Below are positions 15,179 to 54,364 of a DNA stretch of 64,000 bases, piece by piece. Where the stretch lies: NCBI GenBank assembly GCA_051294905.1, contig CM119372.1:25236001-25300000 (forward strand). The letters are read 5' to 3'. A model generated the notes under the pieces. The model worked only from the letters and a program-made list of their open reading frames with translations, did no database searches and was not told where the DNA came from. Source of the DNA: Botryllus schlosseri. Taxonomy: Eukaryota. The position numbers and the translations under genes were made by a program. How positions within the stretch are numbered: position 1 is the first letter of the stretch; every line of letters begins with the position of its first letter.

Positions 15179-18100
15179 ATGACTGGAACTGAATTTTCGC
15201 GCGATGGTGGATGTCATCATGTAGACAAGGCAAAGATACTCGGTGTCCATAAACAGCAACATGATAAAATATCTCATGTAAGTGTTGAGTTTAAAAATGA
15301 CATTGAGATATAATCGTATACTGGTCACTAGTCAAAAATGAAGCAATTGCCGGGATGTCTTACAGCTCAATTTTTAATTAGACGTGAAGACGTGAGGCAA
15401 TCTTATATCAGAATGTATCCAGTCATTGCCATACCCCATTGCATGAATTCCTCTTTTGTAGCATTTCATTGTGGTGGGTATTTGGAGCGATAAGAGTCAA
15501 GTCACGGTGTATCGGAAATTGCGGCAAATCAGGTCTTTTCAGAAAGATATCATGCAGGTAAGTGATGTCTTTGAATCGATCAAACCTTTCCATTTAAAGA
15601 TAGACATTTGCAATATGTGATTACGAGCTATAGATGCTCTAATAAAATTAGCACAATAGCATCATTGCAAATGCTGATAGAAGCCCGATGGTTGCTGTCG
15701 ATGGAATGCTGTCGATAGTGAATAATCCATATTACACCCAGTAAGTTATAATTTCGTGATTTTATTTGATACGATCTTATTTCAGTGCCACAAAGTCGGC
15801 GGTGGAAACGACGACTCCAAACGGTGTCTGAAGAAGGTTGCGCGAGGATTAAACAACGTCATGCGATCAGGTCGCGGTACAATGGGCAAGCTGAAGATGA
15901 TCGACAGTTTGAATAATTTTTTATCGGTACGTAGATCAACTTTTCATTGATTCACTCAACACAGTATGGCGACAATATCACTGCCTGGTGAATGGTCGAT
16001 TTCACTCCTAAATAAATGGGCCGTGCGAATCCAAAAAAGATCTTTGAGTTTAGCATGCGAACTTTCGTCGATCGTCTACCTACAAAAAAAAACTTGCTAA
16101 ATTATACCCCACTAATTAGAGCAGGCGAACCAACGCTCTGGAATGACGTGTCTATTGGGAGGTAGCCAACAAAATAAAGTCGCAATGCTCCAGGATTGGT
16201 CCGTGGTCTCGTGACATATCCATCTGATATGCATTGTTCCTATATAAATTTATATATTTCCTCTCGATATAAATTTTGCAATTCTATATATTGAAATGCA
16301 TAACATTTTATCGCAGGTTATCACGCATTACGAAGAATTGGCCCAGTCGGAAATCATGAGCAACTTCTTCAAGCCCACTGAGATTGATACCACTTCAATG
16401 ATCTGGAGGTAAAATGTCAACCTTGTTTTGAGAATAGAGATTATTATTTTCATAAATGCTACTGCTTCCCAATACAGTACATTTCTCTGACTGATTTTTA
16501 GAGAAAGCTAATGATAATTGACATTATTTACTTGAATTTCATTTCTACAGCAAGAACGGGAAAACCTATATGTATGTACCACGAGATACATTAGGCCGCA
16601 ACAACAAAAGCTCTGAATCGGATGATGAACAAGAGATCTTCGGTGACGATATAAACCAAAGCATTCGTTTGGATAGTGCTGGCGAAGAGATCCAGGTACA
16701 TCGAGATATCCCATTATATTCCGAACAGCTTCGCTTATCATTAATACTTAATTTCAAAGGACCGGGATTATGACACTGATTCAAGCAGTAAAGGTCAATT
16801 CATGCCACAATCGAATACCGTTACCTATATAGCAGTCGCAGACTTCGAAGGAGACTCTACAAATTTCGGAAAAGACTTGATTTCAATACACAAAGACGAA
16901 GAAGTTGAAGTTGTTGAACAAGATAAATCAGGTATAAGACATTCGAATTAGTCCCGACATTCACGTGATACCTTGCTGCAACCAAACGGATTGACTGTTC
17001 GTAACGTGACAGATGAACATTAAACACTGGGTGCAATAACGGAAGTTATGTTTCAGGATGGTGGCTAGTGAGAAAATCTTCTGAAGATTCGCAATCGGAT
17101 AATTCACCGTGCGGTTACGTACCAGCGAGCTACTTGAGACAATCAACGAGCGATGAGTCGAATGATTCGTTCGACGCGGTTGATTCCAATTCGCCACAAC
17201 TTCCTGTTTTTGTAAGTAGGCTTATTTATGATTACTTCATACAATAAATTACCGTGAACTTGATTTGGCGATGAATATCAATATGACTAAGATTATGACT
17301 CTAAGACTTGATGTAACTGCGAATTGACCAGGATTTAATATTGAATTACTTATATCCAAATTTTTATCAATGCATTTGTAAAACATTTGTTAAACGAGTA
17401 TATGTTAGGGATGGTGTGAACGTGAGGTTCACGTTCGGGTTCTGTGTGTGAATCTCGGAAATTTAGAGGTTCGCGTTCACACACGAACCTTGGAAGGTTC
17501 GGCACTGTGAACCATTTTTATATATTACAATTTTCACTTCAACATAACATCTGAAATTTACTGCATTTCAACTGCGAGCCACTATTTGTATGGCGCTGGC
17601 AGCATAAAAAAATCAACACTAAACGAGCATGCACCTTGACAATCCCAACAATTTTACCTGCTTTGTTCAACAGTTTGCTCGAAATATCCAGCTTTCCGTT
17701 TGTGAATATTTAGTGACTCTCTGCTGTGAGCTTGACCCGCAATCACACAACATCAAGAGCGAAATACACTACATGTAGATGTAGGTAGTCGGCGAATGAT
17801 TCTTATTCAACCAATCAATGAAATTGGTATCATTGTCTGATGTAAAGAATCTAGCAGGCGTACGGGGTCAATCTTGATTTCATATGCTTATTGTATCATA
17901 AAAACCAAATCCGCGCTATTGGGGTGTTGGCTACTGCTGTATAACTAGTTGTAGTAATATCGGTAGCAAGTACAGAAACCCGTTTTATACTCTGCTCAAT
18001 ATCAACGCAGCAATACTCACACGCCGAATGCATTGTGCGGTCTGGCCTAGACCGTTAAGGCGTAAAATTCCCTTGCAAGTCTTCGTCGAGATTGTTGGCA

Positions 18101-19774
18101 AAGCGACGGAAGATATTGATTTTATGGGACCATTATATCATTTGATTGCCACAGTTTATGTATTTGGCGAAGTTTAAAACGTCATGTACTTTAACATTGT
18201 GGCATTATGTGGCCCGAGTCGTCGCTAGGTATCGTGTACATTACTATAGGCTATAACTTCACTGAAATGGAGGGTTGGAATTAGCAATATGACGTCACGT
18301 GACGTCATTAGGTTCACGGTCGCGTTCACACAGAACCTTCCAAAAAGGTTTGCGTTCACACGAACCTGAACCCTTCAGAGGTTCACACCATCCCTTGACT
18401 ATATGTATGTATAATTGTATATTTAACTTACGGGTGCATTTCCGATGTGAAAACAATTGAAAGCATGGGTTGACTTGTAGTCGACTTTAATCAAACCCGC
18501 CGACCTAGTTTGTGCTAAGCAAAGGAGTTTTTATCTGAAATTAGCACATTGAGCCCAAGTCGCGATCATTCGAATTTTCCTACCGTTGACGTCATATTTG
18601 GTGATACGATTGTTGCTATACAATGTTATTTTCAATTATCGACTATAGTTGCATTATGGTTATCCCTGGCTAATGCCCGCCAAAATTTTTCGGGTTTATT
18701 TTAATATGAATAGACTATTCCACTATATATACTCAAGAGTTTCGATCAGTATACTTCATGATTTATGTCTCAATTCATAGGGCCCAACCATGCTCATACC
18801 CGAGGAAGCGGTGAATTATGACTTGTCGGGGGCAGCGTTTGATTCGGAGTCTCCAAAATTAACGAAATCAATAGTAAACAAACTGCGCCGAGAGTTCACC
18901 TTTGGCAGCAGTGATTCCGAACTATCTGATATGACTCGCAGTTCCGAGGAGATAAACGAAATGAGCGACGGACTGACTGAAATGACCGGGACAGCGGAAT
19001 GTCGCTCCGCCACATCCTCTCCCTTCGGTAGCAGACGACAATCGAATGCTATGAAGAATCGAGAAATACGATCACGTCGCCGAAACACATTAGCGCTGGC
19101 AACGTTAGGAACGCTTTTCAGACCATCCGAAAGTTCAATCTCCCAACCCAATTACATAAGGCGCCAGACATTTGCAGAGATTTCAACCGGCGCTGATAGC
19201 TTGTTCAGAAGCTCATCCACGGGGAACATCGTGAGTCAGATTGGGTACGAGGACGTTAAGTAATACATAAAAGCAATGAAAATTATGATTTTCAATTGTA
19301 TTCAGAGAGGATTATATTTCGAAGGAATCGTACGAAGCAACTTCGTCAGACGAGATAAGTTTCTCCAAGGGATCTGTTTTGAAAGTACTTCGCAGGAATA
19401 AGAATGGATGGTGGCTAGCAAGGTACGTTTCAGTCACATGAACATGAACACAGAGGTATTCAGTAATGAAATAATTTTTTCTGCTTGTTCAAAGTAAAGT
19501 GATTTTTACCACGCACCCAAGAGGTTTTGTTTTGTACTATACATCCACTTGTACTTGAATACCATGGATGTAGAAAGTAGTTTTGTGATGAGATTGCATC
19601 ATTCTGTCACTGTATTTCCGAATATTGTACCTATTCGCAGCGTCAATTTTACTTATTCAAGACAGTTTCATTTTTAGTTATAACCAAAAGACTGGACTAG
19701 TTCCCGGTGTGCATCTCCAGCGATACCAAGACCCGATTAGAAAATTGAGTCTGCGAATGTTGGATTTGATTTGA
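15179..19774 (+). CDS. PX-SH3-SH3 adaptor protein, p47phox/NCF1-NOXO1-SH3PXD2-like, tandem copy 1 (10 coding exons, ~525 aa, intact)
   Basis: Hand-spliced GT-AG exons 15179-15277, 15462-15557, 15786-15926, 16317-16408, 16551-16695, 16760-16931, 17057-17211, 18781-19244, 19306-19422, 19678-19774 give one open frame of 1578 nt. PX-like N-terminus: AKILGVHKQQ..SH|HFIVVGIWSDKSQVTVYRKLRQIRSFQKDI..LAQSEIMSNFFKP (cf. p47phox LLGFEKR..YMFLVKWQDLSEKVVYRRF..LLDFFK). SH3-1: YIAVADFEG..ISIHKDEEVEVVEQDKSGWWLV..GYVPASYL. SH3-2: GEDYISKESYEATSSDEISFSKGSVLKVLRRNKNGWWLAS..TGLVPGVHL. Exon sizes and phases are conserved in the paralogues. Confidence 0.88.
17406..18396 (+). mobile_element. TAGGGATGGTGTGAAC-family MITE in intron 7 of copy 1
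   Basis: Full-length match to 24574-25565 with both TIRs. Confidence 0.9.
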
Positions 19775-25565: not shown

Positions 25566-25573
25566 GTAGAGAC

Positions 25574-26472: not shown

Positions 26473-26501
26473 GTAGAGACCCTATCGGGCTACGAAGCAT
26501 C

Positions 26502-35535: not shown

Positions 35536-37125
35536 GTTGCGTCTGTATATAGAGAACCGTGCTCACCGAGTTGATGGATTCGAGAACCATGCGTATAGGG
35601 AACTGCAAACTTGCTAACATTGTTATCAATGATCCAGCGAAAGCTTTATTTTGGGAGTCATTGGGGCGGATGGACAGTTGGACACTGTTTACCTAAAGGA
35701 ACAATCATTTGTATATTCGTGATGTGGATTATAATGTATATCTACCTATAGGTGAACTAAAGTTGTGTGTAATGTTTTGACATTTCTAACAAATATTTAG
35801 ATATTATTGTAAGAAATACTTCCCACAAGGCAGCAAATGTCAAGATCATAGGCAACATCATAAACATCCGACAGAGGTGGTATGGTTTCACTCTAGTCAC
35901 CATCAGAAACGAGTTAGTGAAACTGATATCCAGGGCGGAGATAATAAAGTTGGATTAGCAATAAAGTCGATTATTGCGTTCGTCAGGATTTATCAACCCA
36001 GGATTAAGGAAACCGGTTGATCGCAGCGCATAAAGTCAGTGTTAATCTCATGATTTAACAAACCGGAACAACTATGGATAAAGTTTCCTATAAAAACTGC
36101 GTACACTGCGTGGGCGTATACCATTCCTACCCACAAATATTTCCGATAATGAGCGTGCCGATTGTCTCCTAGGTAATGGCTTCACTAAACAATCAACGAA
36201 TTATGTACCCGCCATTGCAAAGCGATATCAATATTCTATCATCCGTTTCTTAGCTGTACCGTACAAATCGGATGCACACGACTTTCATTTCGCGATGACG
36301 ATAATTCGACATATTACAGTGGCAACAGGCTGCTGTTTCATTCAACTAATTGACAACTGACAGCGATAACGCGTTTCCGCATTATGATGCAACAGATAAC
36401 GCCACTTGATTAAAAACTCTGGACGAAAAAAAGGGCGTGCATTTTGAGGTAATATATTGGAACCATTTGACTGGTCCGGCCCGCGAGTGATTTGAAGGTT
36501 TGAATCCGGCCCGCGACGCAAGTTGAGTTTGATACCCCTTCTCTAGTGTATGCCGTTTGTATGTTATTACATTCTGTCTGTGCTGTCAAAACGTAATATT
36601 GTTTTTGATAGTTTGACCGTTGATAAAAGTTCATTTTGCAGTTGAACAGGGTCGAGGTAACATTTGTTTAGCTTGCAATTTCTGTCTTTATTGATTCCTG
36701 ACGAAGCGTCACGACAGCTCAGCTCCGCCTGCTGGGGTTTATAAATGGCGTAATATAAATAAATACATAGTTGTCAGTATAAGGTTGAAGTGTATAAATG
36801 TAAGTTGAGAGTGTAAGAAAATAATGTATCAAAATGAGATTCTTCACTTGATTTAACAATTTCATCAAGAATTGGGAGACCGAAAAAAAACTAGCATTGA
36901 ATCAAAAATAAGCATATTGAGGTGCAACAGCAAAATGTTGGGACCTATTTTCAATACGACAATTGTTTGAATCTTATTTCTCTATGGTTGATCGTGCAGT
37001 CAGCCGTTTACAAATGAAAAGTCTTTGGGCTACTTATGGGGGAAGGTACAGTTGTGATATTTAAAATTTGAAGTATTCAGAGACGTCTCTAAGTACTGCA
37101 TTGACAGCTCGTAATTCACAATTAA

Positions 37126-37309
37126 AGGGGCACTGCACTCTAAAAACGATGTGGTCTGCGTGACTGCTGGAGCGCGAAGTTGTTGCGGAAATTTCAATAA
37201 ATTCCAGCTCCCTTACGGCGGCGTTCTAAAGAAAATGGCCGCGGCCAAAAATTTTTTTCGTTTTGCCCTTCAATTTGAGACCACATCATTTTTATAGTGC
37301 AGTGCCCCT
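37126..37309. mobile_element. Small TTAA-flanked MITE (Kolobok-like); mirrored at ~47590-47773
   Basis: TTAA|AGGGGCACTGCACT...AGTGCAGTGCCCCT|TTAA with ~30-bp TIRs. Confidence 0.8.
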
Positions 37310-38118
37310 TTAAGCAGAAAAAATCCGCTCAAATTTGGTTCGATACGCATACGCGTTTACGCGATACCGAGTTTTCGACATTATTTTCGAAATTTTCGCA
37401 AATCACATCATAACCAACAAACTAAAGCTTATATTGTAAAACTTCAAGTGTAGCCTACCCTTTAAGTGTAGAACATCGCTGATGTGAGGCTAAGTTTGAT
37501 CAGTATTGGAGTTCTGCTGATACCAAAATTTCCTTCTGCAGGAAAACCATATCAACGAAAAATAGAAAGCTGAAAAAATTAACTTTGAATATTGAAAATT
37601 GTATTCGTGTAAAATTAGAAAAGGTCTAAATTCTGATAATTTTGCATCGTTCAGGCATGCTTAACCTGTAAACTCATTATCTATGATCGAATTTGCTCAA
37701 AAGGCAGGGTTTAAAGGTTTTAAAACCCTAGTGAGTTTTTCGTAGGCCTCTATCGCTTGTCATCAGTCTAAATACCGTAATCTGAGTCAAAAAGCGATTT
37801 TCACCCTTGTTCCCATCCAAACGATATATCTCTGCAAGTCGGGTTTTCTGCTCTTGATGAAATGCAATTAAAAAAAACGAACAAAAGTGTTGATATGCCT
37901 ATGCCATGAGCACTAGAAGCACGGCTACTGCAACAAGTTAAAGATATCAACGTGGATTTCTTTAAATATGCACGGCGCATTTCATATAGTATGCAAGCTT
38001 GCTCATCCTTACTCCGATCAGGATGAATTCAGATTCGATGTGTTACGTGGGCTGGGGTGTATTGAGTAAACATTAACAGGGTGTACCATTCTGAAAAAGG
38101 CTGGCAATACTGTTCTAC

Positions 38119-40791
38119 CTCCAGCTCTTTGAAGACGGATCGATCTCAGTAGGTTTCAAGAAGATGCTCATCGTTTTCGATTGTGCTAATTCGTCGTAAT
38201 GTGTGACGACCTGTGGTAAGGTGGTGCACATTTTAATTCATATAATTATTTATAATCATATATTTCTATTGAGAGGAAATGTATATCCAATCTGAGGAAC
38301 GCAATTCCAATGGAAGTTTCACGGGAGCACGGGTCAATCCTCCTCAAATTTCGGAAACATTGGCACAATGCGACTTTATTTTGTTGGTTACCCTAAAATC
38401 AATCTACGTCGTCACGTCATTGCTGTTATTTACTTTTTTTACCTCAGGCCTATCTAATTGTTATACAATTGAAGTTCTGTGTCTCCAAGAAGGTCATATA
38501 ATGGTTACCATTTTTTGAAGGAGATCATCGAAGGTTTGCCCACTAAACTCGAATACGATTATTCGGTGAATACACACGAATCACCGGACACTTATAGTAA
38601 TCATGATATTGACAAAAAAACTGAAAATGAATGAATGAAAAGTTGATCAACGTACCGAAAAGAAATTATTCAAACTGTCGATCATTTTCAACTTGCCCAT
38701 TGTACCGCGACCTGATCGCATGGCGTTGTTTAATCCTCGTGAAACCTTTTTCAGAGAGCGTTTGGTGAGTCGTTAACGCCTCTTACTTTGTGACACTGAA
38801 ATAAGATAGTATCACATCGAATAACGAAATTTACATCTGTCTGGATAAAGGATGGGTTATGCACTTTATAACGACTGCTGTCATTAATGTGAAACTAAGT
38901 ATCGACATTTTTTGGATATTGCGTTTGGTTGTTTTGATGGGATATATATCATCCGGAATTGCTCATTCAATCTATATTGAAACTGGTTATATTAATTTAT
39001 GTTGCTATATGTTCATTGTTCATGTTATATATATCAGTACATCTCGAGAGATCAATTTCAGGGAAACGGTCGTTATGGGTTTTTATTGGGGATTGTGTGA
39101 ACGCGGGGTTCACGTTCGCGTTCTGTGTGTGAACCTGAGAAATTTAGAGGTTCACGTTTACAAACGAACCGTGGTATAGGTTCTGCACTGTGAACCTTTT
39201 TCATATATTACAATTTTCATGTCATTATAACATCTTTGGTTGAAAGTTATTGCATTTCAACTGCGGGCCACTCTATGCATGGCGCTGGCAGCATAAATAA
39301 TGAACACTAAATGAGCATGCCCCCCTGACAATCTCAAAAATGTTACTTGCTTTATTACAAAAGTTTGCTCGAAATATCCAGCTAGTTCCGTTTGTGAATA
39401 TTCAGTGACTGGCAGCTGTGAGCTTGACCCGCAATCACACAACATCAATAGCGAAATACGCTACATGTAGGTAGTCATTGATATCGCTGTCTAATGTAAA
39501 AAAGTTAGCAAGCGTACACGTTCAATCTCGATTTCATATGTTAATTGTATCATAAAAATCAATTCCGTGCGATTAGGGTGTTGTCTACTGCTGTATAACT
39601 TGTTAAAGGGGTAATATCGGTAGCAAGTATAGAACCCCGTTTTACACTCTGCTCTATATCAATGCAGCAACACTGAGACGCCGAATAGATTGTCCGGTCT
39701 GGCCTAGGCGTAAGCTTATATATTCCCTTGCAATTCTCGTCGAAATTGTTAACAAAGCGACGGAAGATATTGATTTTATGGAATTATTATATCATTTGAT
39801 TGCCCCAGCTGATACATTTGGCGACGTTTAAAAAGTCAGTATGTACTTTAGCATTGTGGCATTATGTGTTCCGAGTCGTCGCTAGGTATCGTGTATACGT
39901 ACATTATTATATCACTTCACTGAAATGTAGGGTTGGAATTAGCAATGTGACGTCACGTGACGTCATGAGGTTTACGTTCGCGTTCACACAGAACCTTTCA
40001 GAAAGGTTCGCACTCCCACGAACCTGAACCTTTCGGAGGTTCAAACCATCCCTGGTTTTTATGACACTTTTCAATGAAACAGAGTCAGCAGTAGGCCTAT
40101 ACTGGGCACGGTATTGTATCATGTATAAGTATATGGATAAAATATGATTTGAATTAGTGATTTGGATGTTGAAATAGTACACTATAGCTATATCTCTCTT
40201 GATCGCGGAAAGGCTACGTAGTTCTATTACCTAAGTCCGAAATAGTTCTAGAACGGAATGCAGGTGGAATTTGGTATTCGAAAATAAATTATGTTTACGA
40301 ACCATCAGGCTTTTATTAGTATTTTCAATAAGTTAGATATGCCTTTTATTTGAGTTTTCGCTCGAAATTGAACATCTCAAAGCTCTATCTTTAACAACGG
40401 GAAACTTCAAATTGAAGCATGGAGATCACTTACCTGCATGATATCTTTTTGAAAACACCTAATTTGCCGTAATGTTCGGTACACCGTTACTTGACTTTTG
40501 TCGCTCCGAATACCCACCATAATGAAATGCTGCAAAATGGATTCCATATGATAGGCATGACAACGATTTGGATACATGATGATATGTGCTTTCTAAAGGC
40601 TCTGTAAGACAGCCAATCATTTGCCAATCATTGTTAAATCTTCGACTAGTGATCACGGTTATAGCTCAATATCATTTCAAGTCAATACTAACATGAGATA
40701 TTTTATCATGTTGCTGTTTATGGAAACCGAGTACCCTTGCTTTTTCTGCATGGTGACATCCGCCGTCACTCCCGAATCCAGTTCCTGCCAT
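38119..40791 (-). pseudogene. Truncated inverted copy of coding exons 1-4 (PX region) of copy 3
   Basis: Reverse complement of 44107-46780 inside the left arm of the large inverted repeat. It carries the same exon-3 frameshift and has no downstream exons. Confidence 0.85.
39087..40054 (+). mobile_element. TAGGGATGGTGTGAAC-family MITE (left IR arm)
   Basis: TIRs present; 8-bp TSD GTTTTTAT. Confidence 0.88.
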
Positions 40792-42154
40792 TATCCTGGA
40801 TGTTTTATCAATATATTCAACGTGAACTATAACTGATCTAGAATGAGAGATTCGATACTTATATATTTAGTGAATATCACGTCATATGATGGATAATATA
40901 ATATTCAACTGGAGTGCTTTGTTGATGATTTGATAGTGGCGATCGTGACAGATGATAAAGATTATGATGAGATGTATAGATGCACAGAACGCAGACACCT
41001 TTTATCGAAATTTCACCCTGTTACAAATATTAATACATACAATGTAGTATGTGTAAACGGCCAAGCAATTGATGAAGATCTATAGCCCACACGCATTTTC
41101 AATGCTAGGACAATCCATCGTTAAAACCAACCTCATAGTGTTGCAAAAGCAGTCGCACCGTAAAACCGTATATACTTGAAATTGTGGATGCTTTACATTT
41201 CTTATCCCAGCCAATCCTCATCCTTGTGACGACATTGAAACCTATCCAGTCATTAAAATGATCGTCGAGATTTGTGTTCAGTAAATGTTACATTCTTTGA
41301 AAAGTGCATCTGTAAATATTCGTCAGTCTCCAAATATGATCCGCGATTTGGAAATTATGAATACGGTATATTGAACCAATGTCAAAGTTACAAATGATTG
41401 TGTGGATATTTCTCTCAGCTGCACTCTATTTTACATATAAATGCGAAAACCCATGATGCAACCCTTGCGCCTGTTTACCACAGTTCGTAATAGGGATTGC
41501 ATAATTGTTTACCTTCACCACAAAGCAGACCTATACAAAATAATATCAACTATATGGTTTTACAGCATTACTTTCCAAACTTGCTTGTGGAGCATTGGAA
41601 AAACTATAAAATATTCGCACCAGACATGCAAGACAAGAGCGTGACTCACGTGATAACGTGATCGACGAGCTTGATTATACGAACGACTGAAACGGGACTG
41701 TATTGATGAAAACATACCCGCATTTTGTCGCCAATATCAAGTAGTCTATCTCGTTTACAGCTTTTAATTCCTGTCGAAACAGAAAACAGCCGACCTCCTG
41801 AACTCATCCATATTTTGGTGGAAACTGCGTTTATAATCCGGTCGTTTCGTAAATTAATGAACAGTATTTCATCTCCTACACTCCTTCATCGCTTCCGATT
41901 GGATCAACTATCTTATAAAGACAATTTTGGGAAGTAATGTTGCAGTTAGGGTTGCATTTAAAACAAAAATCAATTTAAAACAAATATGTCTAAAACAAGA
42001 CCCTAATTTAAAACATGTTTATTATTGTTGTTGTTTTTTAGCCATGACGTCACGAATATTCAATTGTGACGTCATAGTGGATTGACATTGACAATTGAAA
42101 ATATAGGGTAAATATAGCTCCCATGACGAAATATCTGTACTATAGCTGTTGAAC

Positions 42155-43309
42155 CGGTTGCCAGTGAACTCGGCACCTGGTGAACTCGGCACCTTCAACT
42201 CGGCACCTTGAACTCGGCACTTGGTGAACTCGGCACTTGATGAACTCGGCACTTCGTTTGATCGTAGATGCTGTGCGATCTCTATTGTTTCAAGTTTATG
42301 ACAATACAATGTTCCCCATGACACCAATAAATGTCTCCCATGAACACATCGAAACTTATGAAGGCCAAAATAATCAGTCTTTGCCTTCAAAGAAACGGAT
42401 ATTATAAATTAAATATCGTCCTTCAACTATATTCTTTTAGCAGGATGTTTCCCTAATGTCACCCTTCAACCTTCTCCTGACCAGATACCCGTGACAAAAT
42501 CACACCTTCCTATAATTAATCAGCTAATACAAAATCAGTATTGTTGTGTTGTATTGAACTTATAAAATCTCTAATAAACCTAACAGTTCAACTTATCAAT
42601 AACTAATCAACTAATAAATAAGATATATATATTTTGCACGATCCTTGCATCTCATGGTTTGCATATGCACAGATCGTGTGTATGTGTATCACGAGTTGGG
42701 TGCATATGCCGCAAAAACATCAAGGACAATAATAAACTACGTCCTTTCCTTCCAAAGAATTGAGGCATGTTTTTTTTCATCTTCCTGGTGTAAGAACGAT
42801 CGACCTTAGTCGTCAAACAGCATATCTCCTCCTCTTTGCGATACAACCTCCAATATTTTATTAGTTGACTCAATGAGATCATCTTCCTGCAAACAGGATT
42901 ATAAGTTAAAATCTGACCACTCATATCGAATTAATTAGCACTATTCAACTTACCTGGTTGTTAAGATCGGCTACCGGTAGCGGCCCCACTTCAATCTCAA
43001 CGGCACCTTCCTGCAAACAAAATTTAGTTAAAATCTCATAGCTCACATCGAATTAATTAGCACCATTCGACTTACCTGGTTGTAAAGATCGACTACCAGT
43101 AGCGGCCCCACTTCAATCTCAACGCATATGTCCGTCCATGTCCATCGCATATATCAATCATGAATCATTCCCTCTATCCGTCACATTAGCAATAGATGCA
43201 CCGAGTAGACCAACACCGACAGACGGCATTGTTGCGTCACAATACAAGCGCCGATTTCACCAGGTGCCGAGTTAAAGGTGCCGAGTTCACCAAGGGCCGA
43301 GTTCACTGG
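42155..43309. mobile_element. TIR element with tandem GAACTCGGCAC subterminal repeats; right tip cut by the inversion breakpoint
   Basis: Left end CGGTTGCCAGTGAACTCGGCACC followed by about 6 repeats; right end GTGCCGAGTT..GGCCGAGTTCACTGG, lacking the expected CAACCG. Confidence 0.75.
42883..43123. repeat. Two ~120-bp tandem units, each an intron plus exon on the minus strand
   Basis: CTTCCTGCAAACA..GTTAAAATCT..TCGAATTAATTAGCAC..ACTTACCTGGTTG..GCGGCCCCACTTCAATCTCAACG occurs twice. Confidence 0.85.
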
Positions 43310-43317
43310 AAAGTAAT

Positions 43318-46300
43318 GTTTGGAAAGTAATGCTGTAAAACCATATAGTTGATATTATTTTGTATAGGTCTGCTTTGTGGTGAAGGTAAACAATTATGCA
43401 ATCCCTATTACGAACTGTGGTAAACAGGCGCAAGGGTTGCATCATGGGTTTTCGCATTTATATGTAAAATAGAGTGCAGCTGAGAGAAATATCCACACAA
43501 TCATTTGTAACTTTGACATTGGTTCAATATACCGTATTCATAATTTCCAAATCGCGAATCATATTTGGAGACTGACGAATATTTATAGATGCACTTTTCA
43601 AAGAATGTAACATTTACTGAACACAAATCTCGACGATCATTTTAATGACTGGATAGGTTTCAATGTCGTCACAAGGATGAGGATTGGCTGGGATAAGAAA
43701 TGTAAAGCATCCACAATTTCAAGTATATACGGTTTTACGGTGCGACTGCTTTTGCAACACTATCAGGTTGGTTTTAACGATGGATTGTCCTAGCATTGAA
43801 AATGCGTGTGGGCTATAGATCTTCATCAATTGCTTGGCCGTTTACACATACTACATTGTATGTATTAATATTTGTAACAGGGTGAAATTTCGATAAAAGG
43901 TGTCTGCGTTCTGTGCATCTATACATCTCATCATAATCTTTATCATCTGTCACGATCGCCACTATCAAATCATCAACAAAGCACTCCAGTTGAATATTAT
44001 ATTATCCATCATATGACGTGATATTCACTAAATATATAAGTATCGAATCTCTCATTCTAGATCAGTTATAGTTCACGTTGAATATATTGATAAAACATCC
44101 AGGATAATGGCAGGAACTGGATTCGGGAGTGACGGCGGATGTCACCATGCAGAAAAAGCAAGGGTACTCGGTTTCCATAAACAGCAACATGATAAAATAT
44201 CTCATGTTAGTATTGACTTGAAATGATATTGAGCTATAACCGTGATCACTAGTCGAAGATTTAACAATGATTGGCAAATGATTGGCTGTCTTACAGAGCC
44301 TTTAGAAAGCACATATCATCATGTATCCAAATCGTTGTCATGCCTATCATATGGAATCCATTTTGCAGCATTTCATTATGGTGGGTATTCGGAGCGACAA
44401 AAGTCAAGTAACGGTGTACCGAACATTACGGCAAATTAGGTGTTTTCAAAAAGATATCATGCAGGTAAGTGATCTCCATGCTTCAATTTGAAGTTTCCCG
44501 TTGTTAAAGATAGAGCTTTGAGATGTTCAATTTCGAGCGAAAACTCAAATAAAAGGCATATCTAACTTATTGAAAATACTAATAAAAGCCTGATGGTTCG
44601 TAAACATAATTTATTTTCGAATACCAAATTCCACCTGCATTCCGTTCTAGAACTATTTCGGACTTAGGTAATAGAACTACGTAGCCTTTCCGCGATCAAG
44701 AGAGATATAGCTATAGTGTACTATTTCAACATCCAAATCACTAATTCAAATCATATTTTATCCATATACTTATACATGATACAATACCGTGCCCAGTATA
44801 GGCCTACTGCTGACTCTGTTTCATTGAAAAGTGTCATAAAAACCAGGGATGGTTTGAACCTCCGAAAGGTTCAGGTTCGTGGGAGTGCGAACCTTTCTGA
44901 AAGGTTCTGTGTGAACGCGAACGTAAACCTCATGACGTCACGTGACGTCACATTGCTAATTCCAACCCTACATTTCAGTGAAGTGATATAATAATGTACG
45001 TATACACGATACCTAGCGACGACTCGGAACACATAATGCCACAATGCTAAAGTACATACTGACTTTTTAAACGTCGCCAAATGTATCAGCTGGGGCAATC
45101 AAATGATATAATAATTGCATAAAATCAATATCTTCCGTCGCTTTGTTAACAATTTCGACGAGAATTGCAAGGGAATATATAAGCTTACGCCTAGGCCAGA
45201 CCGGACAATCTATTCGGCGTCTCAGTGTTGCTGCATTGATATAGAGCAGAGTGTAAAACGGGGTTCTATACTTGCTACCGATATTACCCCTTTAACAAGT
45301 TATACAGCAGTAGACAACACCCTAATCGCACGGAATTGATTTTTATGATACAATTAACATATGAAATCGAGATTGAACGTGTACGCTTGCTAACTTTTTT
45401 ACATTAGACAGCGATATCAATGACTACCTACATGTAGCGTATTTCGCTATTGATGTTGTGTGATTGCGGGTCAAGCTCACAGCTGCCAGTCACTGAATAT
45501 TCACAAACGGAACTAGCTGGATATTTCGAGCAAACTTTTGTAATAAAGCAAGTAACATTTTTGAGATTGTCAGGGGGGCATGCTCATTTAGTGTTCATTA
45601 TTTATGCTGCCAGCGCCATGCATAGAGTGGCCCGCAGTTGAAATGCAATAACTTTCAACCAAAGATGTTATAATGACATGAAAATTGTAATATATGAAAA
45701 AGGTTCACAGTGCAGAACCTATACCACGGTTCGTTTGTAAACGTGAACCTCTAAATTTCTCAGGTTCACACACAGAACGCGAACGTGAACCCCGCGTTCA
45801 CACAATCCCCAATAAAAACCCATAACGACCGTTTCCCTGAAATTGATCTCTCGAGATGTACTGATATATATAACATGAACAATGAACATATAGCAACATA
45901 AATTAATATAACCAGTTTCAATATAGATTGAATGAGCAATTCCGGATGATATATATCCCATCAAAACAACCAAACGCAATATCCAAAAAATGTCGATACT
46001 TAGTTTCACATTAATGACAGCAGTCGTTATAAAGTGCATAACCCATCCTTTATCCAGACAGATGTAAATTTCGTTATTTGATGTGATACTATCTTATTTC
46101 AGTGTCACAAAGTAAGAGGCGTTAACGACTCACCAAACGCTCTCTGAAAAAGGTTTCACGAGGATTAAACAACGCCATGCGATCAGGTCGCGGTACAATG
46201 GGCAAGTTGAAAATGATCGACAGTTTGAATAATTTCTTTTCGGTACGTTGATCAACTTTTCATTCATTCATTTTCAGTTTTTTTGTCAATATCATGATTA

Positions 46301-49119
46301 CTATAAGTGTCCGGTGATTCGTGTGTATTCACCGAATAATCGTATTCGAGTTTAGTGGGCAAACCTTCGATGATCTCCTTCAAAAAATGGTAACCATTAT
46401 ATGACCTTCTTGGAGACACAGAACTTCAATTGTATAACAATTAGATAGGCCTGAGGTAAAAAAAAGTAAATAACAGCAATGACGTGACGACGTAGATTGA
46501 TTTTAGGGTAACCAACAAAATAAAGTCGCATTGTGCCAATGTTTCCGAAATTTGAGGAGGATTGACCCGTGCTCCCGTGAAACTTCCATTGGAATTGCGT
46601 TCCTCAGATTGGATATACATTTCCTCTCAATAGAAATATATGATTATAAATAATTATATGAATTAAAATGTGCACCACCTTACCACAGGTCGTCACACAT
46701 TACGACGAATTAGCACAATCGAAAACGATGAGCATCTTCTTGAAACCTACTGAGATCGATCCGTCTTCAAAGAGCTGGAGGTAGAACAGTATTGCCAGCC
46801 TTTTTCAGAATGGTACACCCTGTTAATGTTTACTCAATACACCCCAGCCCACGTAACACATCGAATCTGAATTCATCCTGATCGGAGTAAGGATGAGCAA
46901 GCTTGCATACTATATGAAATGCGCCGTGCATATTTAAAGAAATCCACGTTGATATCTTTAACTTGTTGCAGTAGCCGTGCTTCTAGTGCTCATGGCATAG
47001 GCATATCAACACTTTTGTTCGTTTTTTTTAATTGCATTTCATCAAGAGCAGAAAACCCGACTTGCAGAGATATATCGTTTGGATGGGAACAAGGGTGAAA
47101 ATCGCTTTTTGACTCAGATTACGGTATTTAGACTGATGACAAGCGATAGAGGCCTACGAAAAACTCACTAGGGTTTTAAAACCTTTAAACCCTGCCTTTT
47201 GAGCAAATTCGATCATAGATAATGAGTTTACAGGTTAAGCATGCCTGAACGATGCAAAATTATCAGAATTTAGACCTTTTCTAATTTTACACGAATACAA
47301 TTTTCAATATTCAAAGTTAATTTTTTCAGCTTTCTATTTTTCGTTGATATGGTTTTCCTGCAGAAGGAAATTTTGGTATCAGCAGAACTCCAATACTGAT
47401 CAAACTTAGCCTCACATCAGCGATGTTCTACACTTAAAGGGTAGGCTACACTTGAAGTTTTACAATATAAGCTTTAGTTTGTTGGTTATGATGTGATTTG
47501 CGAAAATTTCGAAAATAATGTCGAAAACTCGGTATCGCGTAAACGCGTATGCGTATCGAACCAAATTTGAGCGGATTTTTTCTGCTTAAAGGGGCACTGC
47601 ACTATAAAAATGATGTGGTCTCAAATTGAAGGGCAAAACGAAAAAATTTTTTGGCCGCGGCCATTTTCTTTAGAACGCCGCCGTAAGGGAGCTGGAATTT
47701 ATTGAAATTTCCGCAACAACTTCGCGCTCCAGCAGTCACGCAGACCACATCGTTTTTAGAGTGCAGTGCCCCTTTAATTGTGAATTACGAGCTGTCAATG
47801 CAGTACTTAGAGACGTCTCTGAATACTTCAAATTTTAAATATCACAACTGTACCTTCCCCCATAAGTAGCCCAAAGACTTTTCATTTGTAAACGGCTGAC
47901 TGCACGATCAACCATAGAGAAATAAGATTCAAACAATTGTCGTATTGAAAATAGGTCCCAACATTTTGCTGTTGCACCTCAATATGCTTATTTTTGATTC
48001 AATGCTAGTTTTTTTTCGGTCTCCCAATTCTTGATGAAATTGTTAAATCAAGTGAAGAATCTCATTTTGATACATTATTTTCTTACACTCTCAACTTACA
48101 TTTATACACTTCAACCTTATACTGACAACTATGTATTTATTTATATTACGCCATTTATAAACCCCAGCAGGCGGAGCTGAGCTGTCGTGACGCTTCGTCA
48201 GGAATCAATAAAGACAGAAATTGCAAGCTAAACAAATGTTACCTCGACCCTGTTCAACTGCAAAATGAACTTTTATCAACGGTCAAACTATCAAAAACAA
48301 TATTACGTTTTGACAGCACAGACAGAATGTAATAACATACAAACGGCATACACTAGAGAAGGGGTATCAAACTCAACTTGCGTCGCGGGCCGGATTCAAA
48401 CCTTCAAATCACTCGCGGGCCGGACCAGTCAAATGGTTCCAATATATTACCTCAAAATGCACGCCCTTTTTTTCGTCCAGAGTTTTTAATCAAGTGGCGT
48501 TATCTGTTGCATCATAATGCGGAAACGCGTTATCGCTGTCAGTTGTCAATTAGTTGAATGAAACAGCAGCCTGTTGCCACTGTAATATGTCGAATTATCG
48601 TCATCGCGAAATGAAAGTCGTGTGTATCCGATTTGTACGGTACAGCTAAGAAACGGATGATAGAATATTGATATCGCTTTGCAATGGCGGGTACATAATT
48701 CGTTGATTGTTTAGTGAAGCCATTACCTAGGAGACAATCGGCACGCTCATTATCGGAAATATTTGTGGGTAGGAATGGTATACGCCCACGCAGTGTACGC
48801 AGTTTTTATAGGAAACTTTATCCATAGTTGTTCCGGTTTGTTAAATCATGAGATTAACACTGACTTTATGCGCTGCGATCAACCGGTTTCCTTAATCCTG
48901 GGTTGATAAATCCTGACGAACGCAATAATCGACTTTATTGCTAATCCAACTTTATTATCTCCGCCCTGGATATCAGTTTCACTAACTCGTTTCTGATGGT
49001 GACTAGAGTGAAACCATACCACCTCTGTCGGATGTTTATGATGTTGCCTATGATCTTGACATTTGCTGCCTTGTGGGAAGTATTTCTTACAATAATATCT
49101 AAATATTTGTTAGAAATGT
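43318..49119. repeat. Right arm of the ~5.8-kb inverted repeat (native arm, continuous with the downstream exons of copy 3)
   Basis: Begins GTTTGGAAAGTAATGCTG (rc of the 41563-41580 end) and ends TTGTTAGAAATGT (rc of the 35780 start). Confidence 0.97.
44844..45811 (-). mobile_element. TAGGGATGGTGTGAAC-family MITE in intron 2 of copy 3 (mirror of 39087-40054)
   Basis: Reverse complement of the left-arm copy. Confidence 0.88.
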
Positions 49120-50094
49120 GTTTGATAATACAGGGATTTTTCAATCTACTCAGAATTGCTTCGCTGGTCGGATGAAATCGCCTGACGGGCTGGATGATTG
49201 TATGATCTAGCATATTTGTAACAAACGTTCTTCACAGAAACGCAAACGCAAATGTAAAACTGTCTCAGTCCCCGGCATCGACATAAACCCGAATCGCGAT
49301 TTAATACTGATGAACCAAATTCCAACGTTAAATTTTATTCCTCATAACGCATACTCGAGACTATAATGCCAGAATACGACTTTATAACAAAGGGATCATA
49401 GAATTATACCAACTTATATCATCGTTAGAGCCAATATTTCAGCGGTTAATAACTGTATTCAACCCGCCAATCATCGTACTTTTACCAATTCGATTGTTTG
49501 CGAATAAAGGCGTTATTACAACAGAACCCCAATAATCGGTAATATATACTATCATGTACACAGGCTTGATAATAATGTGTTCGAGTAAATAATACTTTGG
49601 AATAATTTGTCTGGTGCGGCCCCCGATCAGGAGGTTTGAATCCGGCCCTCGACTCAAGTTGAGTTTGACACCCCTGACGTACAGTACACCCTTGGATCCA
49701 CGATACACTGGCGGCTGAAAAGCCCTGAGGTACAATATTACCTTCCCTTTTAAATATGGGCACTAATTCTCTACATGCTACTGCTACCCAGTTCATTTTT
49801 GTGACTGGTCGTTAGACTAAGGTTAGGCAATGATAAAGACAACATATTAATGTTTTACATTATTTACGTGAATTTCATTTCTTCAGCAAGAGTGGAAAAA
49901 CGTATATGTACATTCCACGAAACACATTAGGTCGCAACTCCCAAAACGCGGAAATGTATGATGAACAAGGGAGCTTTGGCGACTATATAACCAAAAGTAT
50001 TCGTTTGGATAGTGCTGGCGAAGAGACGAAGGTGATATTTATCATCAATATATCACATTTTGTTTTCAGCAGCACTTCCTATCAGTAATAATAA

Positions 50095-51811
50095 CACTGG
50101 TCTACAAAATGAAGAAAAAAAATATGCAGAACATCTGAGAGCCGTTTTTGGGGTTTTGAGGTTTCTGGAATATCACATTAGTTTTCCCAGATTGGCTCTT
50201 TGTCAGAAGATATTTGGACCCCTAAAAAAGCCCAAAATTACAGTATTAACCCTTACATATTTCACTTGGTAGGAAGAAAATTGTAGTTTTTTTCTAATTT
50301 AAACTGCGCATGAATAGATAATTGACTATGAAGAACCCTCATGTCGTTCTCAGTCATTCTATCAATATAGACATGACATGATGCTAAATATTTGTTTGTC
50401 AAAAAAGCAGTTTGTCAAGCCTAAAAATTGTACTTCTGCACAACAGAAACACATATTCTCCTGTATCAATTGGTCATTCTACCAAGATTAAAGACAAGTA
50501 TAAAAACTATAAAAATTTTCCTGGAAAAGCTTAACTATACAATACTCGTATGCGGCTCATTTCTTTTGACAGGTAAATGGATAATTTCCCGCTGAGTCAA
50601 CAAAGTGGGTATACCTTGTATTGTAACCCTATCAAACGAGAAGCCTAAATCTGGTATCTGGTATATTCGAATACCAATGAAAGATTCCAATTTCACTCTG
50701 GGAATGAGTTCATTGCATATAATTTCTCCTAAGATGTAGTAAATAAAACTTTTTAGATGATCACAAAGCACCCAACTACAAACAATTGGTCCGAAAATTC
50801 GTATCTACATATCGAAAACTTCAGCACAAACATGAGCATAAAAGTTCACTTCCTGTTCAGTCATCTTGATATATTTCCTGATCATCTTGTTGATTAGCAA
50901 AGGAGAGGTTCTACCAAGACATCAGAACAACAAAAGAAAGATATCGGGGCAGATGAGATGAACAATTGAATACATTATGGCAGACCATTGCCGGAACCTT
51001 TCGAGAGACTGCACTAAATAGCTTACAGGGAAAAATCGTACAAAATATGTGCTTTAAAATGAATTAATAACATTATGTTCCAACCGTTTATTTCAAATTT
51101 ACAATGGGCGGTTGACCTAAAATTGATTGAATTAATGCCACGTTATTTGAGTATCTAGGTAAATACTTATATATGACTGGAGTTTATTTATGTACATGAT
51201 ATCCGTGAAAGTCTGTAACTATGATAAATCTGTTACCCCTAAATATAGTGCTCTTGCTGTATCTTAATTTAAAAGAGTCTTCTGTGTGTAAAAATAACAA
51301 GTAGATTTAGGCCTACCATACGTCCCGTTTTAGGCGGGACAGTCCCGCTTTTTAACGTCTTGTCCCGGCGTTCCGACCAGTCAGCCAAACGTCCCGCTTT
51401 TTAAAGCCGGCGGGTATTTCGGAGTGAAAAACGGTGATTTTAGCTCTGAGCGGAAAGATGACCTTTTTTTTAGTCAACCGATCACAAAGTGGGATAAATT
51501 CACCGGTTTTTGAGATTTCTTCTCCGGTTTTGCAAGCCTCAGATTTCTGAAAAAGTGTCCCCCTTTTAGATTTCCAAAATATGGTAAGCCTAAGTAGATT
51601 GAATTTCTAAACTTTATAGTAGCCTACGACTGAGCCGATTTCTTATCAACTCATTACCACGAAAATGGGAGATTTTGGTCAAAATAGCCCCATGGATTAT
51701 CTCCACAACATGAGCAAATTAAAAAAATAAGGTCATATTCGGAGTCAGTGCCCTTCAGAACCCCCAAAACCCCTCTTACTTTCTCTGCCTAAAAATATGT
51801 GTTGACCAGTG
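50095..51811 (+). mobile_element. Chapaev (Chapaev3-type) DNA transposon deletion derivative in intron 5 of copy 3
   Basis: Termini CACTGGTC...GACCAGTG with a 3-bp TAA TSD. Degenerate transposase NMSIKVHFLFSHLDIFPDHL..GERFYQDI..ERYRG..IMADHC at ~50829-51010 resembles the Chapaev KxHFLHSHLDxFPxNLGxVSxExGERFHQD motif as I recall it. Confidence 0.78.
51308..51592. mobile_element. hAT-like MITE nested in the Chapaev element
   Basis: TIR TAGGCCTACCATA...TATGGTAAGCCTA; perfect 8-bp TSD AGTAGATT; same family as 3838-4260. Confidence 0.88.
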
Positions 51812-53165
51812 TAATAATATATCATTTATAGAGCTGTAACTATCCACTCATGTCGCAGCCGAATACACTCAGCTGTATTGCACTCGCAGACTTTGAAGGA
51901 GACAATTCGAATTTCGGAGAAGACTTGATTTCAATACAGAAAGATGAAGAAGTCGAAGTTGTGGAACAACATAAATCAGGTATTCGGACAGATATTTTCG
52001 GTATACTTTGCTGCCACCAGACGGGACAGTTCACTTGAAACGTGACATTTGCAAGCTGATCAGAAACTAGCGTTTTCGCGTACATTGCAACAACGACCGT
52101 TATGTTTCAGGGTGGTGGCTAGTGAGAAGATCATCTGTAGATTCGGAATCAGATTTTTCATCATGCGGTTACGTACCAGCGAGCTACTTGAGGCAGTCAA
52201 CGATCGATGACAATTCGCAACAACTTCCAGTTTTTGTAAGTAGGCTTAACATATGATTATTCATTTCATGTGACAAGCATAGATAGGGTTTAATGTTTTT
52301 CTCAATTTCTAATTCTCGACACTGGCCAACAGGATAGAAAGCAAATGGTAGAAAGCGATATTATTATTGACATGGCCGGAAACGGCGACAGGCGCCATTC
52401 AATCCTCACTATTATTAAAAATAAATATGACATTATTTCTTAGCATTGTATTGCTGTCTACTTGACTTGACGTTGGCTATGAATATTGATAAGACTATGA
52501 ATTCACACTTGACTATGCATTGACCAGAAATTGACATTGAATTGCTGTGAACCCTAATTTTTACCCATACATTGGCGAAATCTTTCTAGAGAGTGCAGAG
52601 AGTATGTGTATAGACTTAACCCAGCGGTCATGTCTTACAGTAGATTCACACTTCACAGCACAATGAGTTCACAAGATAGCTGTCCTATTTTACTAGAATT
52701 TGATGGGGCATATTTCCAATGTGCCCAACTGCAATGAAATGCAGAGCAGTAACCCATACTCGGCACAGAAATTTAGAGCAGTATATATTCTACGATTTCT
52801 ATTTCCATTTAGAGCCCAACCATGCTCATGTCCGAAGAAGCGGTTGAATTTGACTTATCGGGGACTGCAGTTTGTTCGGATGCGCCGAAATTGTATAAAT
52901 CGATAGTAAACAATCAGCCCCGAGAATTACCCTTCGACTTCAGTGATTCCGAACAATCTGATATGACGCACAGTTCCGTAGAAATATGCGAAATGAGCGA
53001 CGGGCTGAGTGAAATGAACGAGACATCTCGCCGCTTTGGTAGAAGACACCCGTCAAACACTCTGGGAAATTGGGAATTGCTATCCCGTCGCCGACACACG
53101 TTAGCGTTGCCAACGTTGGGAACACTTTTCACGCCGACCAACAGTTCATTCACCAAATCCAATTC

Positions 53166-53372
53166 AGATACAATATTTGAAAAGTGCGGCGAGACGGAAC
53201 CATGTCGACATGACAGTACGGGCCCTATTATCCAGTCCATATACAATTCAGACTGTTATTGAAGTCGTATTAGCCACCCGATTAATCTAATTTTTGCGGA
53301 TATAATATTTTCGACGTGGTCTGGTGCACAAGACCTTAGTAGTTAAGCACCATTAACCCCACATACAACACA
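53166..53372. mobile_element. 207-bp insertion with a 15-bp TSD (likely retroposed fragment) in exon 8 of copy 3
   Basis: CACCAAATCCAATTC occurs at 53151-53165 and 53373-53387; the insert is absent from copies 1 and 2 and ends in a CA-rich run. Confidence 0.8.
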
Positions 53373-54364
53373 CACCAAATCCAATTCCATAAGGCGACAG
53401 ACGATTGCAGATATTTCAAGTGGGGCTGGTAATGTGGTCCGAAGATCGTCCGCGGTAAACATCGAGATCCAGATCGGGTATGATGTCGTTAAGTCATGCG
53501 TAGAAGTATTGTCATAATAATTTTTGCACCTCCATTCAGAGAGGAGTATATTTCGAAAGAATCTTACGAAGCAACGTCGTCCGATGAGATAAGTTTCGCC
53601 AAGGGTTCTGTTGTGGAAGTGCTTCGTAGGAACAAGAATGGCTGGTAGCTAGCAAGGTACGGTACGGTCGTGCTAGCTATTGCATATCACAGAGCAACGA
53701 TATAGTTCTATGATGTTTGCAATTCTTGTATATCGAAGACTTTTCAATTTTTATTTACAAGGAAAAGACTGGGCTAGTTCCCGGTGTGCATCTCCAGCGA
53801 TACCAAGACCCCATTAGAAAAATGAGTTTGCAAATGTTGGATTTGATTTAAAGTATTCGTCTGCAAGATGAAGACTGCGTCATAGTTGAAACGAGAAGAA
53901 AATCATCAGCTTTCTAACAAGTTTAGTCGAAACCTCGACCCAGTGCTGTTGGGGAAAGAGAGAGAGAGAGAGAAATTTTGCAACCCGTTTCCTAATCTTT
54001 CATTATTGAATATGTTCATTGTTCAACCACTTCATGATTTTTAAATTACACCGTGAAATATCATAGCATAGCCTACACATGTATTGTATATACAGCATCC
54101 ACATAGGCCTACAGGACGGGTCTGTTTCTGATTCCTGGTCGTTGCGTATGCAGTTCAGCATTTCGGTATCTGCTTTCACAAACAATTTGGATCGAACTTT
54201 CAATTTCGCCAAAATGGAATACAACGACGTGACGGTTGTGAATTGATATCTATTTCCGATGGTTTGGTATCAAATATCATAAGAGAGTGATGCACATCAT
54301 TATTAACCTCTGTCGTGCAACTATTGAGGGTAGACCCGATAAGATTCCGCGTGCAACTTGACTG

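Follow-up and report, generated by a model that had tools for sequence, protein, structure and literature searches.

Derived p47phox-family genes in Botryllus schlosseri: a small tandem array with an altered PX domain and a divided SH3 pair

Two features define the p47phox family: a PX domain that binds phosphoinositides and a pair of SH3 domains joined by a short linker. Our analysis of a 64,000-nucleotide stretch of the ascidian Botryllus schlosseri (assembly GCA_051294905.1, contig CM119372.1, positions 25,236,001 to 25,300,000 of the forward strand; hereafter the window), eukaryotic DNA with a GC content of ~39%, revealed genes that are derivatives of this family and not canonical organisers of the NADPH oxidase (Nox). 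In the window genes the fold and the pairing residues are retained, yet the linker is not short, and the lipid pocket and the tail for activator docking are gone. This organiser variant is unusual and apparently undescribed: in the open PMC and bioRxiv literature, subscription journals lying outside that search, we found this type of protein nowhere described, nor any NOXO1 from a tunicate or from amphioxus. The array itself is small and a case of ordinary tandem duplication; the unusual part is the altered protein, which is also seen in an orthologue from Styela clava.

The array and its family membership

Self-comparison of the window revealed four related loci, A to D, and tblastn with A and B found no fifth copy within the 64 kb. 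Their models are as follows (aa, amino acids).

Gene A, 15179..19774, plus strand: 10 exons, nine GT-AG introns, open frame of 525 aa
Exons 1-5 of A, plus strand: 15179-15277, 15462-15557, 15786-15926, 16317-16408, 16551-16695
Exons 6-10 of A, plus strand: 16760-16931, 17057-17211, 18781-19244, 19306-19422, 19678-19774
Protein of A: degenerate PX domain, aa 13-138; first SH3 domain (SH3a), aa 212-283; Ser/Arg-rich spacer; second SH3 domain (SH3b), aa 456-515; short tail
Exon 3 of A, 15786..15926, plus strand: basic amphipathic segment of aa 76-93 (net charge +6), free of proline, where the PX proline loop would be
Exon 8 of A, 18781..19244, plus strand: bulk of the spacer separating the bis-SH3 pair; the spacer is 17% Ser, with several R-R-x-(x)-S/T sites
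Gene B, 32499..35535, plus strand: 10 GT-AG-spliced exons, open frame of 506 aa, 56% identity to A
Gene C, 44107..53851, plus strand: pseudogene with all ten exons in order, 73% amino acid identity to A
Exons 1-5 of C (approximate), plus strand: 44107-44205, 44369-44464, 46103-46242, 46689-46780, 49887-50031
Exons 6-10 of C (approximate), plus strand: 51833-51980, 52111-52235, 52813-53467, 53540-53656, 53755-53851
Gene D, 40791-38119, minus strand: exons 1-4 at 40791-40693, 40529-40434, 38795-38656 and 38210-38119

The initial annotation had described an array from 15179 to 53851 with genes in four states, and this description is borne out: A is intact and open, B is open with an altered SH3 domain, C is a pseudogene that retains all ten exons, and D is a truncated, inverted copy. 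Its remark that no single open reading frame (ORF) reveals these genes was mistaken, since exon 9 of A and exon 9 of B each have an ORF that matches Pfam SH3_1 unaided (E ~1e-10). A and B share the intron phases 0,0,0,2,0,1,0,2,2, and several introns of the array genes lie at what we take to be the intron positions of human NCF1. In B the first SH3 domain is degenerate and the second is intact. C carries five lesions: exon 3 lacks 1 nt, exon 6 has diverged at its 5' end, exon 8 contains an insertion of ~0.2 kb with stops, exon 9 has a TGG>TAG change and exon 10 has lost its acceptor. With tandem copies of mixed age, pseudogenes among them, and three full-length copies in the window, the locus is a birth-and-death array.

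The initial annotation also placed the genes in the p47phox/NOXO1/Tks family, and several lines of evidence agree with membership by descent. Exon 9 of A gave 698 matches among 1.84 billion representatives, and the Pfam PX family was among the top five in 37 of the 59 that were scanned of the best 150 matches used. Within the best 150 of the 698, one protein (P0076) also matched the N-terminal 143 residues of A, at 113 bits with the runner-up at 33. It is the uncharacterised 705-aa product of S. clava LOC120342189 (XP_039266842.2), 34% identical to A over 524 columns, and no published study of it was found. A PX profile from 33 independent PX-positive relatives scored 43.1 bits for Styela, 35.3 for A and 29.3 for B, while 1,002 shuffled or reversed decoys reached 5.9 at most; the PX match is therefore not due to chance.

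Pfam and fold tests were performed on the Styela orthologue as a stand-in for the spliced window proteins. Its best Protein Data Bank (PDB) sequence match is p47phox (E 5e-15), and its AlphaFold model, compared with PX structures, ranks p47phox first (1kq6, Z 14.7, root-mean-square deviation (rmsd) 2.8 over 128 aligned residues), with p40phox tying at Z 13.8 and NOXO1 (2l73) at Z 11.9. An ESM Atlas match of its PX region to a PX cluster (0.84) is taken as a lead only. Pfam PF00787 misses the Styela protein, and single PX exons gave no Pfam PX match (0 of 10); exon 2 of A matched the p47phox PX domain weakly (E 1.6), and exon 5 had no match in the PDB.

The Styela protein has the same degenerate PX domain, an SH3a with the same loop insertions, a long Ser-rich spacer, a C-terminal SH3b and a short tail. 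It differs in being ~85 residues longer at the N terminus, where a long helix is predicted for which no exon was found upstream in the window, and in having a spacer of 270 aa. Because this orthologue has the same layout, the layout is older than the array. No second Styela copy was seen in one word-limited search. The PX-SH3a region of Styela matched itself alone among 2,389 candidates, from which no orthologue in Ciona or another tunicate was retrieved.

The exon models of A and B were predicted from sequence, and transcript support takes the form of pieces ending at exon borders. Four of 24 runs were mapped over 15120-35119, a stretch with C, D and exons 9-10 of B outside it; run X1 consists of contigs classed as RNA by prediction only, and X18, X22 and X15 are raw RNA runs. 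X1 pieces over A terminate at predicted borders: 16758-16927 (in a 760-nt record), 18821-19243 and 19676-20071, the second stopping at the predicted exon-8 donor before 126 more letters. The 192 letters past exon 6 in the 760-nt record reach 18813 under an exon 6-7-8 model, with an X18 variant at 18814, so that this record would fit a long-spacer transcript of A. One further X1 piece (34789-35075) lies within exon 8 of B. Depth in the repeat-free exon bins of A was below 0.3 in X18 and nil in X22 and X15, and none of the three raw runs placed reads on B, of which exons 1-8 were covered. From the X1 pieces and the sparse raw depth, A is probably expressed, at a low level or in a restricted manner; the evidence for B is thinner.

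Two features of the models bear on possible isoforms. Upstream of the ATG in A (15134-15178) and C (44059-44106), an open in-frame stretch lies behind a good splice acceptor, and the equivalent in B contains an in-frame stop; this stretch is possibly a 5' untranslated region, a trans-splice acceptor site or an N-terminal extension of A. Moreover, three adjacent AG acceptors stand at exon 9 of A (19306-19310). Skipping of exon 8 is in frame with the third acceptor only (19310; one of three tried) and predicts a short-linker isoform of 369 aa.

PX domain and SH3 pair

The residues essential in the p47phox PX domain are Arg42, Pro73 and Arg90 (PMC2121648; this and the other papers are cited from the available portions of their text), and the features of PX domains include a PxxPxK loop, a canonical pocket and a secondary His/Tyr site (PMC6449406). 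We compared four family rows (A, B, C and Styela) with 49 other rows. Arg42 is retained in all four, and Arg43 is replaced by Lys or Thr. Pro73 is Lys in 4/4 and Pro in all 49 others; Arg90 is Met in 4/4 and Arg in 43 of the 49. Between helices alpha1 and alpha2, the place of the proline loop, the family rows have no proline and the others have two to six. Where NCF1, NOXO1 and amphioxus have a His in alpha1, the family rows have Gln. With Pro73, Arg43, Arg90, the proline loop and the alpha1 His all replaced, both known lipid sites are altered. By these comparisons the PX fold is kept without a recognisable phosphoinositide pocket. The domain is thus PX in fold and not organiser-like as first annotated, given the replacement of Pro73, Arg43 and Arg90 and the failure of PF00787 on the orthologue.

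In place of the proline loop, the Styela AlphaFold model has a helix (residues 149-167; predicted local distance difference test score 67-84). Each of the four family rows has a basic, amphipathic segment replacing the loop, with a net charge of +4 to +7 and a hydrophobic moment of 0.42-0.64.

The distance between SH3a and SH3b is 173 aa in A and 270 aa in Styela, whereas the 62 further PX proteins compared, near-duplicates among them, have 8-55 aa (median 13). Tandem SH3 domains have been defined by a linker of <60 aa (PMC12730246). The proposed architecture of PX plus tandem SH3 thus stands as to the PX fold and the two SH3 domains, and falls as to their tandem arrangement. The last SH3 domain scored 78 bits with a second-domain profile, 62 with a third and 54 with a first. 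By these scores it is the displaced second domain of the bis-SH3 pair. Its assignment as a third, Ciona-type SH3 domain was ruled out by 78 versus 62 bits.

Pairing of the two domains has been linked to several signatures: GWW in both domains, an acidic pair (C-[DE][DE]) and N-PxxPhiL (PMC12730246). Both GWW motifs, the acidic pair and PxxYL are all kept in A and Styela. The first SH3 domain of B has lost the pairing signatures, with GWW changed to GRR, a His replacing an aromatic residue and a 7-residue deletion, and it is missed by the SH3 profile that detects that of A. In C the second GWW holds a stop. A complex prediction for Styela SH3a, SH3b and spacer scored 0.02, which speaks neither for nor against pairing.

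Ser makes up 17-20% of the spacer, and A and Styela also have basic sites of the phosphorylation type there. Relatives of A exon 8 numbered none among 777 candidates of 271-2000 aa, which is weak evidence. No similarity of the spacer to the NCF1 tail was detected (p 0.11-0.27), and nothing indicated that it is the tail of NOXO1 or NCF1 moved to a new place (p 0.07-0.97). The autoinhibitory motif PP[RP]R and the motifs PPR[RP] and PxxPxRP were not found in A, B or Styela. There is no PxxP downstream of SH3b, the proteins ending ~10 residues past it. As far as motif searches can tell, the p67phox-binding proline region and the autoinhibitory motif are absent.

Ancestry, selection and possible function

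The amphioxus-relative query gave 10 matches, including one NCF1, three NOXO1-type and three further amphioxus proteins. A quick tree was built from 53 rows and a more careful one from 31, with 22 of the 53 rows dropped, including C and three long branches. In the 31-row tree the window genes and Styela were joined at 100/100, and together they grouped with NOXO1 and the amphioxus NCF1-like proteins at 89/86 (888 of 1000 bootstraps). The 53-row tree contained the same grouping, with a Shimodaira-Hasegawa approximate likelihood-ratio (SH-aLRT) support of 92. A direct sister relation to NOXO1 appeared in 717 of 1000 bootstraps (support 72/0). An approximately unbiased (AU) test marginally rejected a sister relation to NCF1, represented by one sequence (p 0.037). 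A and B joined to the exclusion of Styela at 97/85 in the 31-row tree, and A, B and C joined with an SH-aLRT of 87 in the 53-row tree, in agreement with the lineage-specific tandem expansion that had been proposed.

Shared sequence features point the same way. Nine of the 52 rows, namely those of A, B and Styela, two amphioxus, three NOXO1 and one NCF1, have a post-PX hydrophobic motif, and none of the Tks-like ones does, although the pattern was written post hoc, with the alignment already seen. An RT-loop insertion in SH3a is common to the window genes, Styela and vertebrate NOXO1 only, and the PX region of A scores best against amphioxus NCF1-like proteins. Compared by eye, the Ciona savignyi protein H2YLR2 (P0048) agrees with the published rows for Ci-p47phox; its place in the tree is with vertebrate Tks (95/97), and the window genes are therefore not evident orthologues of the Ci-p47phox gene. 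We regard descent of the window genes from the NOXO1 lineage as roughly an even matter.

In amphioxus, P0118, P0155 (named NCF1) and P0156 (NCF1-like) carry a C-terminal PxxPPRP and a C-tail-like segment, and P0118 and P0156 group with NOXO1, not NCF1. The proline region has been described as vertebrate-only among the species studied, and a published model derives NOXO1 from a vertebrate duplication of p47phox (both PMC2121648).

Selection was estimated by pairwise Nei-Gojobori ratios of nonsynonymous to synonymous divergence (dN/dS). These are 0.20 (0.14-0.26) for A-B, 0.28 (0.21-0.37) for A-C and 0.33 for B-C, with a synonymous divergence (dS) of 1.48 for A-B, which is near saturation, and 0.53 for A-C; C and D diverge by ~0.1%. 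The ratio is below 1 in each region of A-B and A-C, with upper 95% bounds of 0.19-0.74. The regions most constrained between A and C are the PX domain (0.16) and the last SH3 domain with the tail (0.13), and this C-terminal SH3 domain with the tail is 77% identical between A and B. By this measure A and B are under purifying selection, and the ratios for A and C indicate that C was constrained through most of its history. The fast, selection-driven evolution suggested at first is not supported by these pairwise values of 0.20-0.33, which carry no arms-race signal.

The anatomy described above can be read from the genes; membrane binding, SH3 pairing, the partner and the effect are what we infer from it. 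An older gene of the p47phox/NOXO1 organiser side would have been rewired first and then duplicated in tandem on a small scale in a stolidobranch-type ascidian. Its PX domain would hold the protein on anionic membranes by the basic amphipathic helix and not by a lipid-headgroup pocket. The two SH3 domains, if the spacer permits it and not otherwise, would clasp a motif of the PPPR[RP] type, of which p22phox provides an example, and this closure would probably be governed by Ser/Thr phosphorylation. Having no activator-docking tail, A may tune Nox assembly or compete with it without activating; alternatively, it may serve other proline-rich partners as an adaptor. B would be a one-SH3 version. 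Because the lipid pocket is gone and the paired SH3 modules are far apart, these proteins would probably tune or redirect the oxidase rather than switch it on. Taken as a whole, the reading of a rewired organiser-side gene whose membrane-held, pocket-free PX domain and conditional SH3 pair tune or compete with oxidase assembly is tentative, its chances a little short of even.

Several points weigh against this reading of a rewired organiser-side gene. The trees contain one NCF1 and three NOXO1 sequences only, the ascidian branch is very long (2.44), and the NOXO1 grouping is unstarred. AU tests retained groupings with vertebrate Tks (p 0.114) and with the Ciona p47phox-like P0048 (p 0.148), the best scores for the PX region of Styela are with Tks-like proteins and not NOXO1, and the Gln at the alpha1 His position is that of Tks. 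As to the SH3 pair, Tks5 shows SH3 pairing in its short-linker isoform only, a longer linker preventing it (PMC12730246), and the Styela AlphaFold model has its SH3 domains unpaired, with an rmsd of 12.5 versus 1ov3 (predicted template modelling score 0.36, 30-row alignment). As to spacer regulation, the pattern used for A and Styela found no R-R-x-S/T site in the B spacer, and similarity between the A and Styela spacers is marginal (p 0.02-0.04).

Part of this evidence would also fit a fast-diverged paralogue of a tunicate Tks or Ciona-type p47phox-like gene that has lost its extra SH3 domains and serves as a Nox-unrelated membrane or cytoskeletal adaptor, the NOXO1 grouping being due to long-branch attraction. 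Besides the AU values and the Gln, such a paralogue would account for the first SH3 domain of Styela scoring best against the C. savignyi protein and for a spacer of 173-270 aa, well beyond the 60-aa tandem definition. The motifs GWWLV and GWWLARY occur in the Ciona protein too and are thus not specific to NOXO1. However, the window genes joined the Ciona protein in 0 of 1000 bootstrap trees, the post-PX motif is common to organisers only, and another residue stands at the second PX Arg, as it does in NOXO1 and amphioxus. The best match of the A PX region to amphioxus NCF1-like proteins, and the retention of all pairing signatures in A and Styela, also argue against such a paralogue, which we consider rather unlikely.

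A more far-reaching version would hold that the NOXO1 lineage is pre-vertebrate, present in amphioxus and ascidians, and that its ascidian branch turned into a 'split superSH3' protein that inhibits or switches the oxidase, with a pocket-free PX domain bearing a basic helix and with SH3 domains that clamp p22phox across the phospho-regulated spacer or after exon-8 skipping. This proposal, which runs against the vertebrate-duplication model (PMC2121648), seems to us doubtful.

Another possibility would be a working Nox organiser with new wiring, in which the separated SH3 domains work independently, one binding p22phox and the C-terminal one binding the tail of ascidian p67phox, which is rich in proline, and the basic helix anchors the complex constitutively. 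[quoted passage not shown] In addition, a segment I-T-x-P-I precedes SH3a in Styela and, by eye, lines up with Ile152 of p47phox, a residue whose role has been described (PMC11647612). However, the Ile152-like residue is lost in A and C, the PX residues required for Nox2 activation are gone, isolated NOXO1 SH3 domains fail to bind p22phox (PMC2864300), and a canonical p47phox-like gene is present in Ciona. An organiser of this kind is quite improbable. A fast-evolving immune expansion of canonical organisers under host-pathogen conflict, which would suit the three copies and a fragment in four states, the respiratory burst of ascidian phagocytes (PMC5465252) and the altered or functionally lost first SH3 of B, is very improbable, given that pairwise dN/dS is below 1 in all A-B and A-C regions (A-B dS being near saturation), that canonical organiser features are absent and that another gene is the canonical p47phox-like one of tunicates.

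Surroundings of the array and relation to known organisers

The truncated gene D belongs to a large inverted duplication.

Left arm, 35780..41580, minus strand: starts ~245 nt past the B stop codon
Spacer between the arms, 41581..43317: 1.7 kb, unique
Right arm, 43318..49119, plus strand: the original copy, running on into intron 4 and exon 5 of C

Exons 1-4 of D have no mismatch to those of C, the exon-3 frameshift included, and the 5.8-kb arms are 99.86% identical, with eight differences (seven substitutions and one homopolymer indel). Since D carries the frameshift and differs so little, it was copied later than the frameshift arose: D is a young inverted copy of an already broken C. An element at approximately 42158-43312, with inverted, subterminal, internally repeated ends and non-matching flanks, abuts the right arm, and a short templated duplication lies at this junction. 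A transposon-linked origin of the inverted duplication is possible. The arm identity might instead indicate an assembly artefact, from a fold-back read or a mis-joined haplotype, leaving A, B and C. This concerns D only, and we judge it to be a small chance, given the differences that separate the arms, the unique spacer, and the transposon-like end and templated duplication at one junction. D is antisense to B, and the first AATAAA downstream of B lies within the duplicated arm. A read-through transcript spanning both arms might, speculatively, fold as a 5.8-kb hairpin.

Other repeats and one neighbouring gene are present in the window.

Non-coding element of ~1 kb with terminal inverted repeats, six copies, 78-90% alike: 17405-18395, 24574-25569, 25574-26476, 39086-40056, 44842-45812, 63517-64000
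Decayed reverse-transcriptase fragments between A and B, plus strand (Pfam RVT_1, E ~1e-11): 23441-23995, 28201-29298
Fold-back elements of ~0.6 kb: 61161-61773 (89% self-complementary) and 10371-10941 (83% arms), mutual similarity ~71%
UNC-93-like membrane-protein ORF, 54365..55717, plus strand: intronless, 450 aa, 514 nt past the C stop

Two copies of the ~1-kb element stand head to tail, one lies in intron 7 of A and one in intron 2 of C and D. The adjoining UNC-93-family ORF noted in the initial annotation is real but divergent (ESM Atlas 0.98 to UNC93-like clusters; Pfam PF05978 E 0.014, under the curated cut-off); its exact sequence is absent from the protein collection searched, and its relation to the array is adjacency only.

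The window genes offer a natural test of whether a short linker is needed for superSH3 pairing, and of the role left to a PX domain that has no proline loop. Should the NOXO1 placement be true, the split of p47phox and NOXO1 would date to early chordates. If the inhibitor or switch reading is true, the genes represent a type of Nox regulator for which no description was found in the literature searched.

Our comparison with known systems sets the window genes nearest to NOXO1 and the amphioxus NCF1-like proteins (P0118, P0155-P0157), with which they share a PX domain and two SH3 domains only, the GWW signatures, the replaced second PX Arg, the post-PX hydrophobic motif and the nearest tree group. 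However, the window genes have neither Pro73 nor the alpha1 His, and neither an SH3 linker of 9-43 aa nor a C-terminal PxxPxRP with a C-tail, all of which NOXO1 and the amphioxus proteins keep. With p47phox/NCF1 they share the ancestral PX-SH3-SH3 core and the top PDB sequence and fold match, and A keeps Arg42, Trp193, an aromatic residue at Phe209 and Trp263; they differ in lacking the PPRR autoinhibitory motif and the proline-rich region and in the loss of Pro73 and Arg90. Ci-p47phox resembles them in having no C-terminal proline-rich region (PMC2121648) and in its GWW signatures, the latter shared with Tks4/Tks5, which also have Gln at the alpha1 His position. Unlike the window genes, both Ci-p47phox and Tks keep a canonical PX domain, a short-linker bis-SH3 pair (9-55 aa) and, beyond that pair, between one and three more SH3 domains. 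Tks4/Tks5 are recognised by a canonical PX domain and four or five SH3 domains, whereas the window genes have two SH3 domains and neither the RRY motif nor the proline loop.

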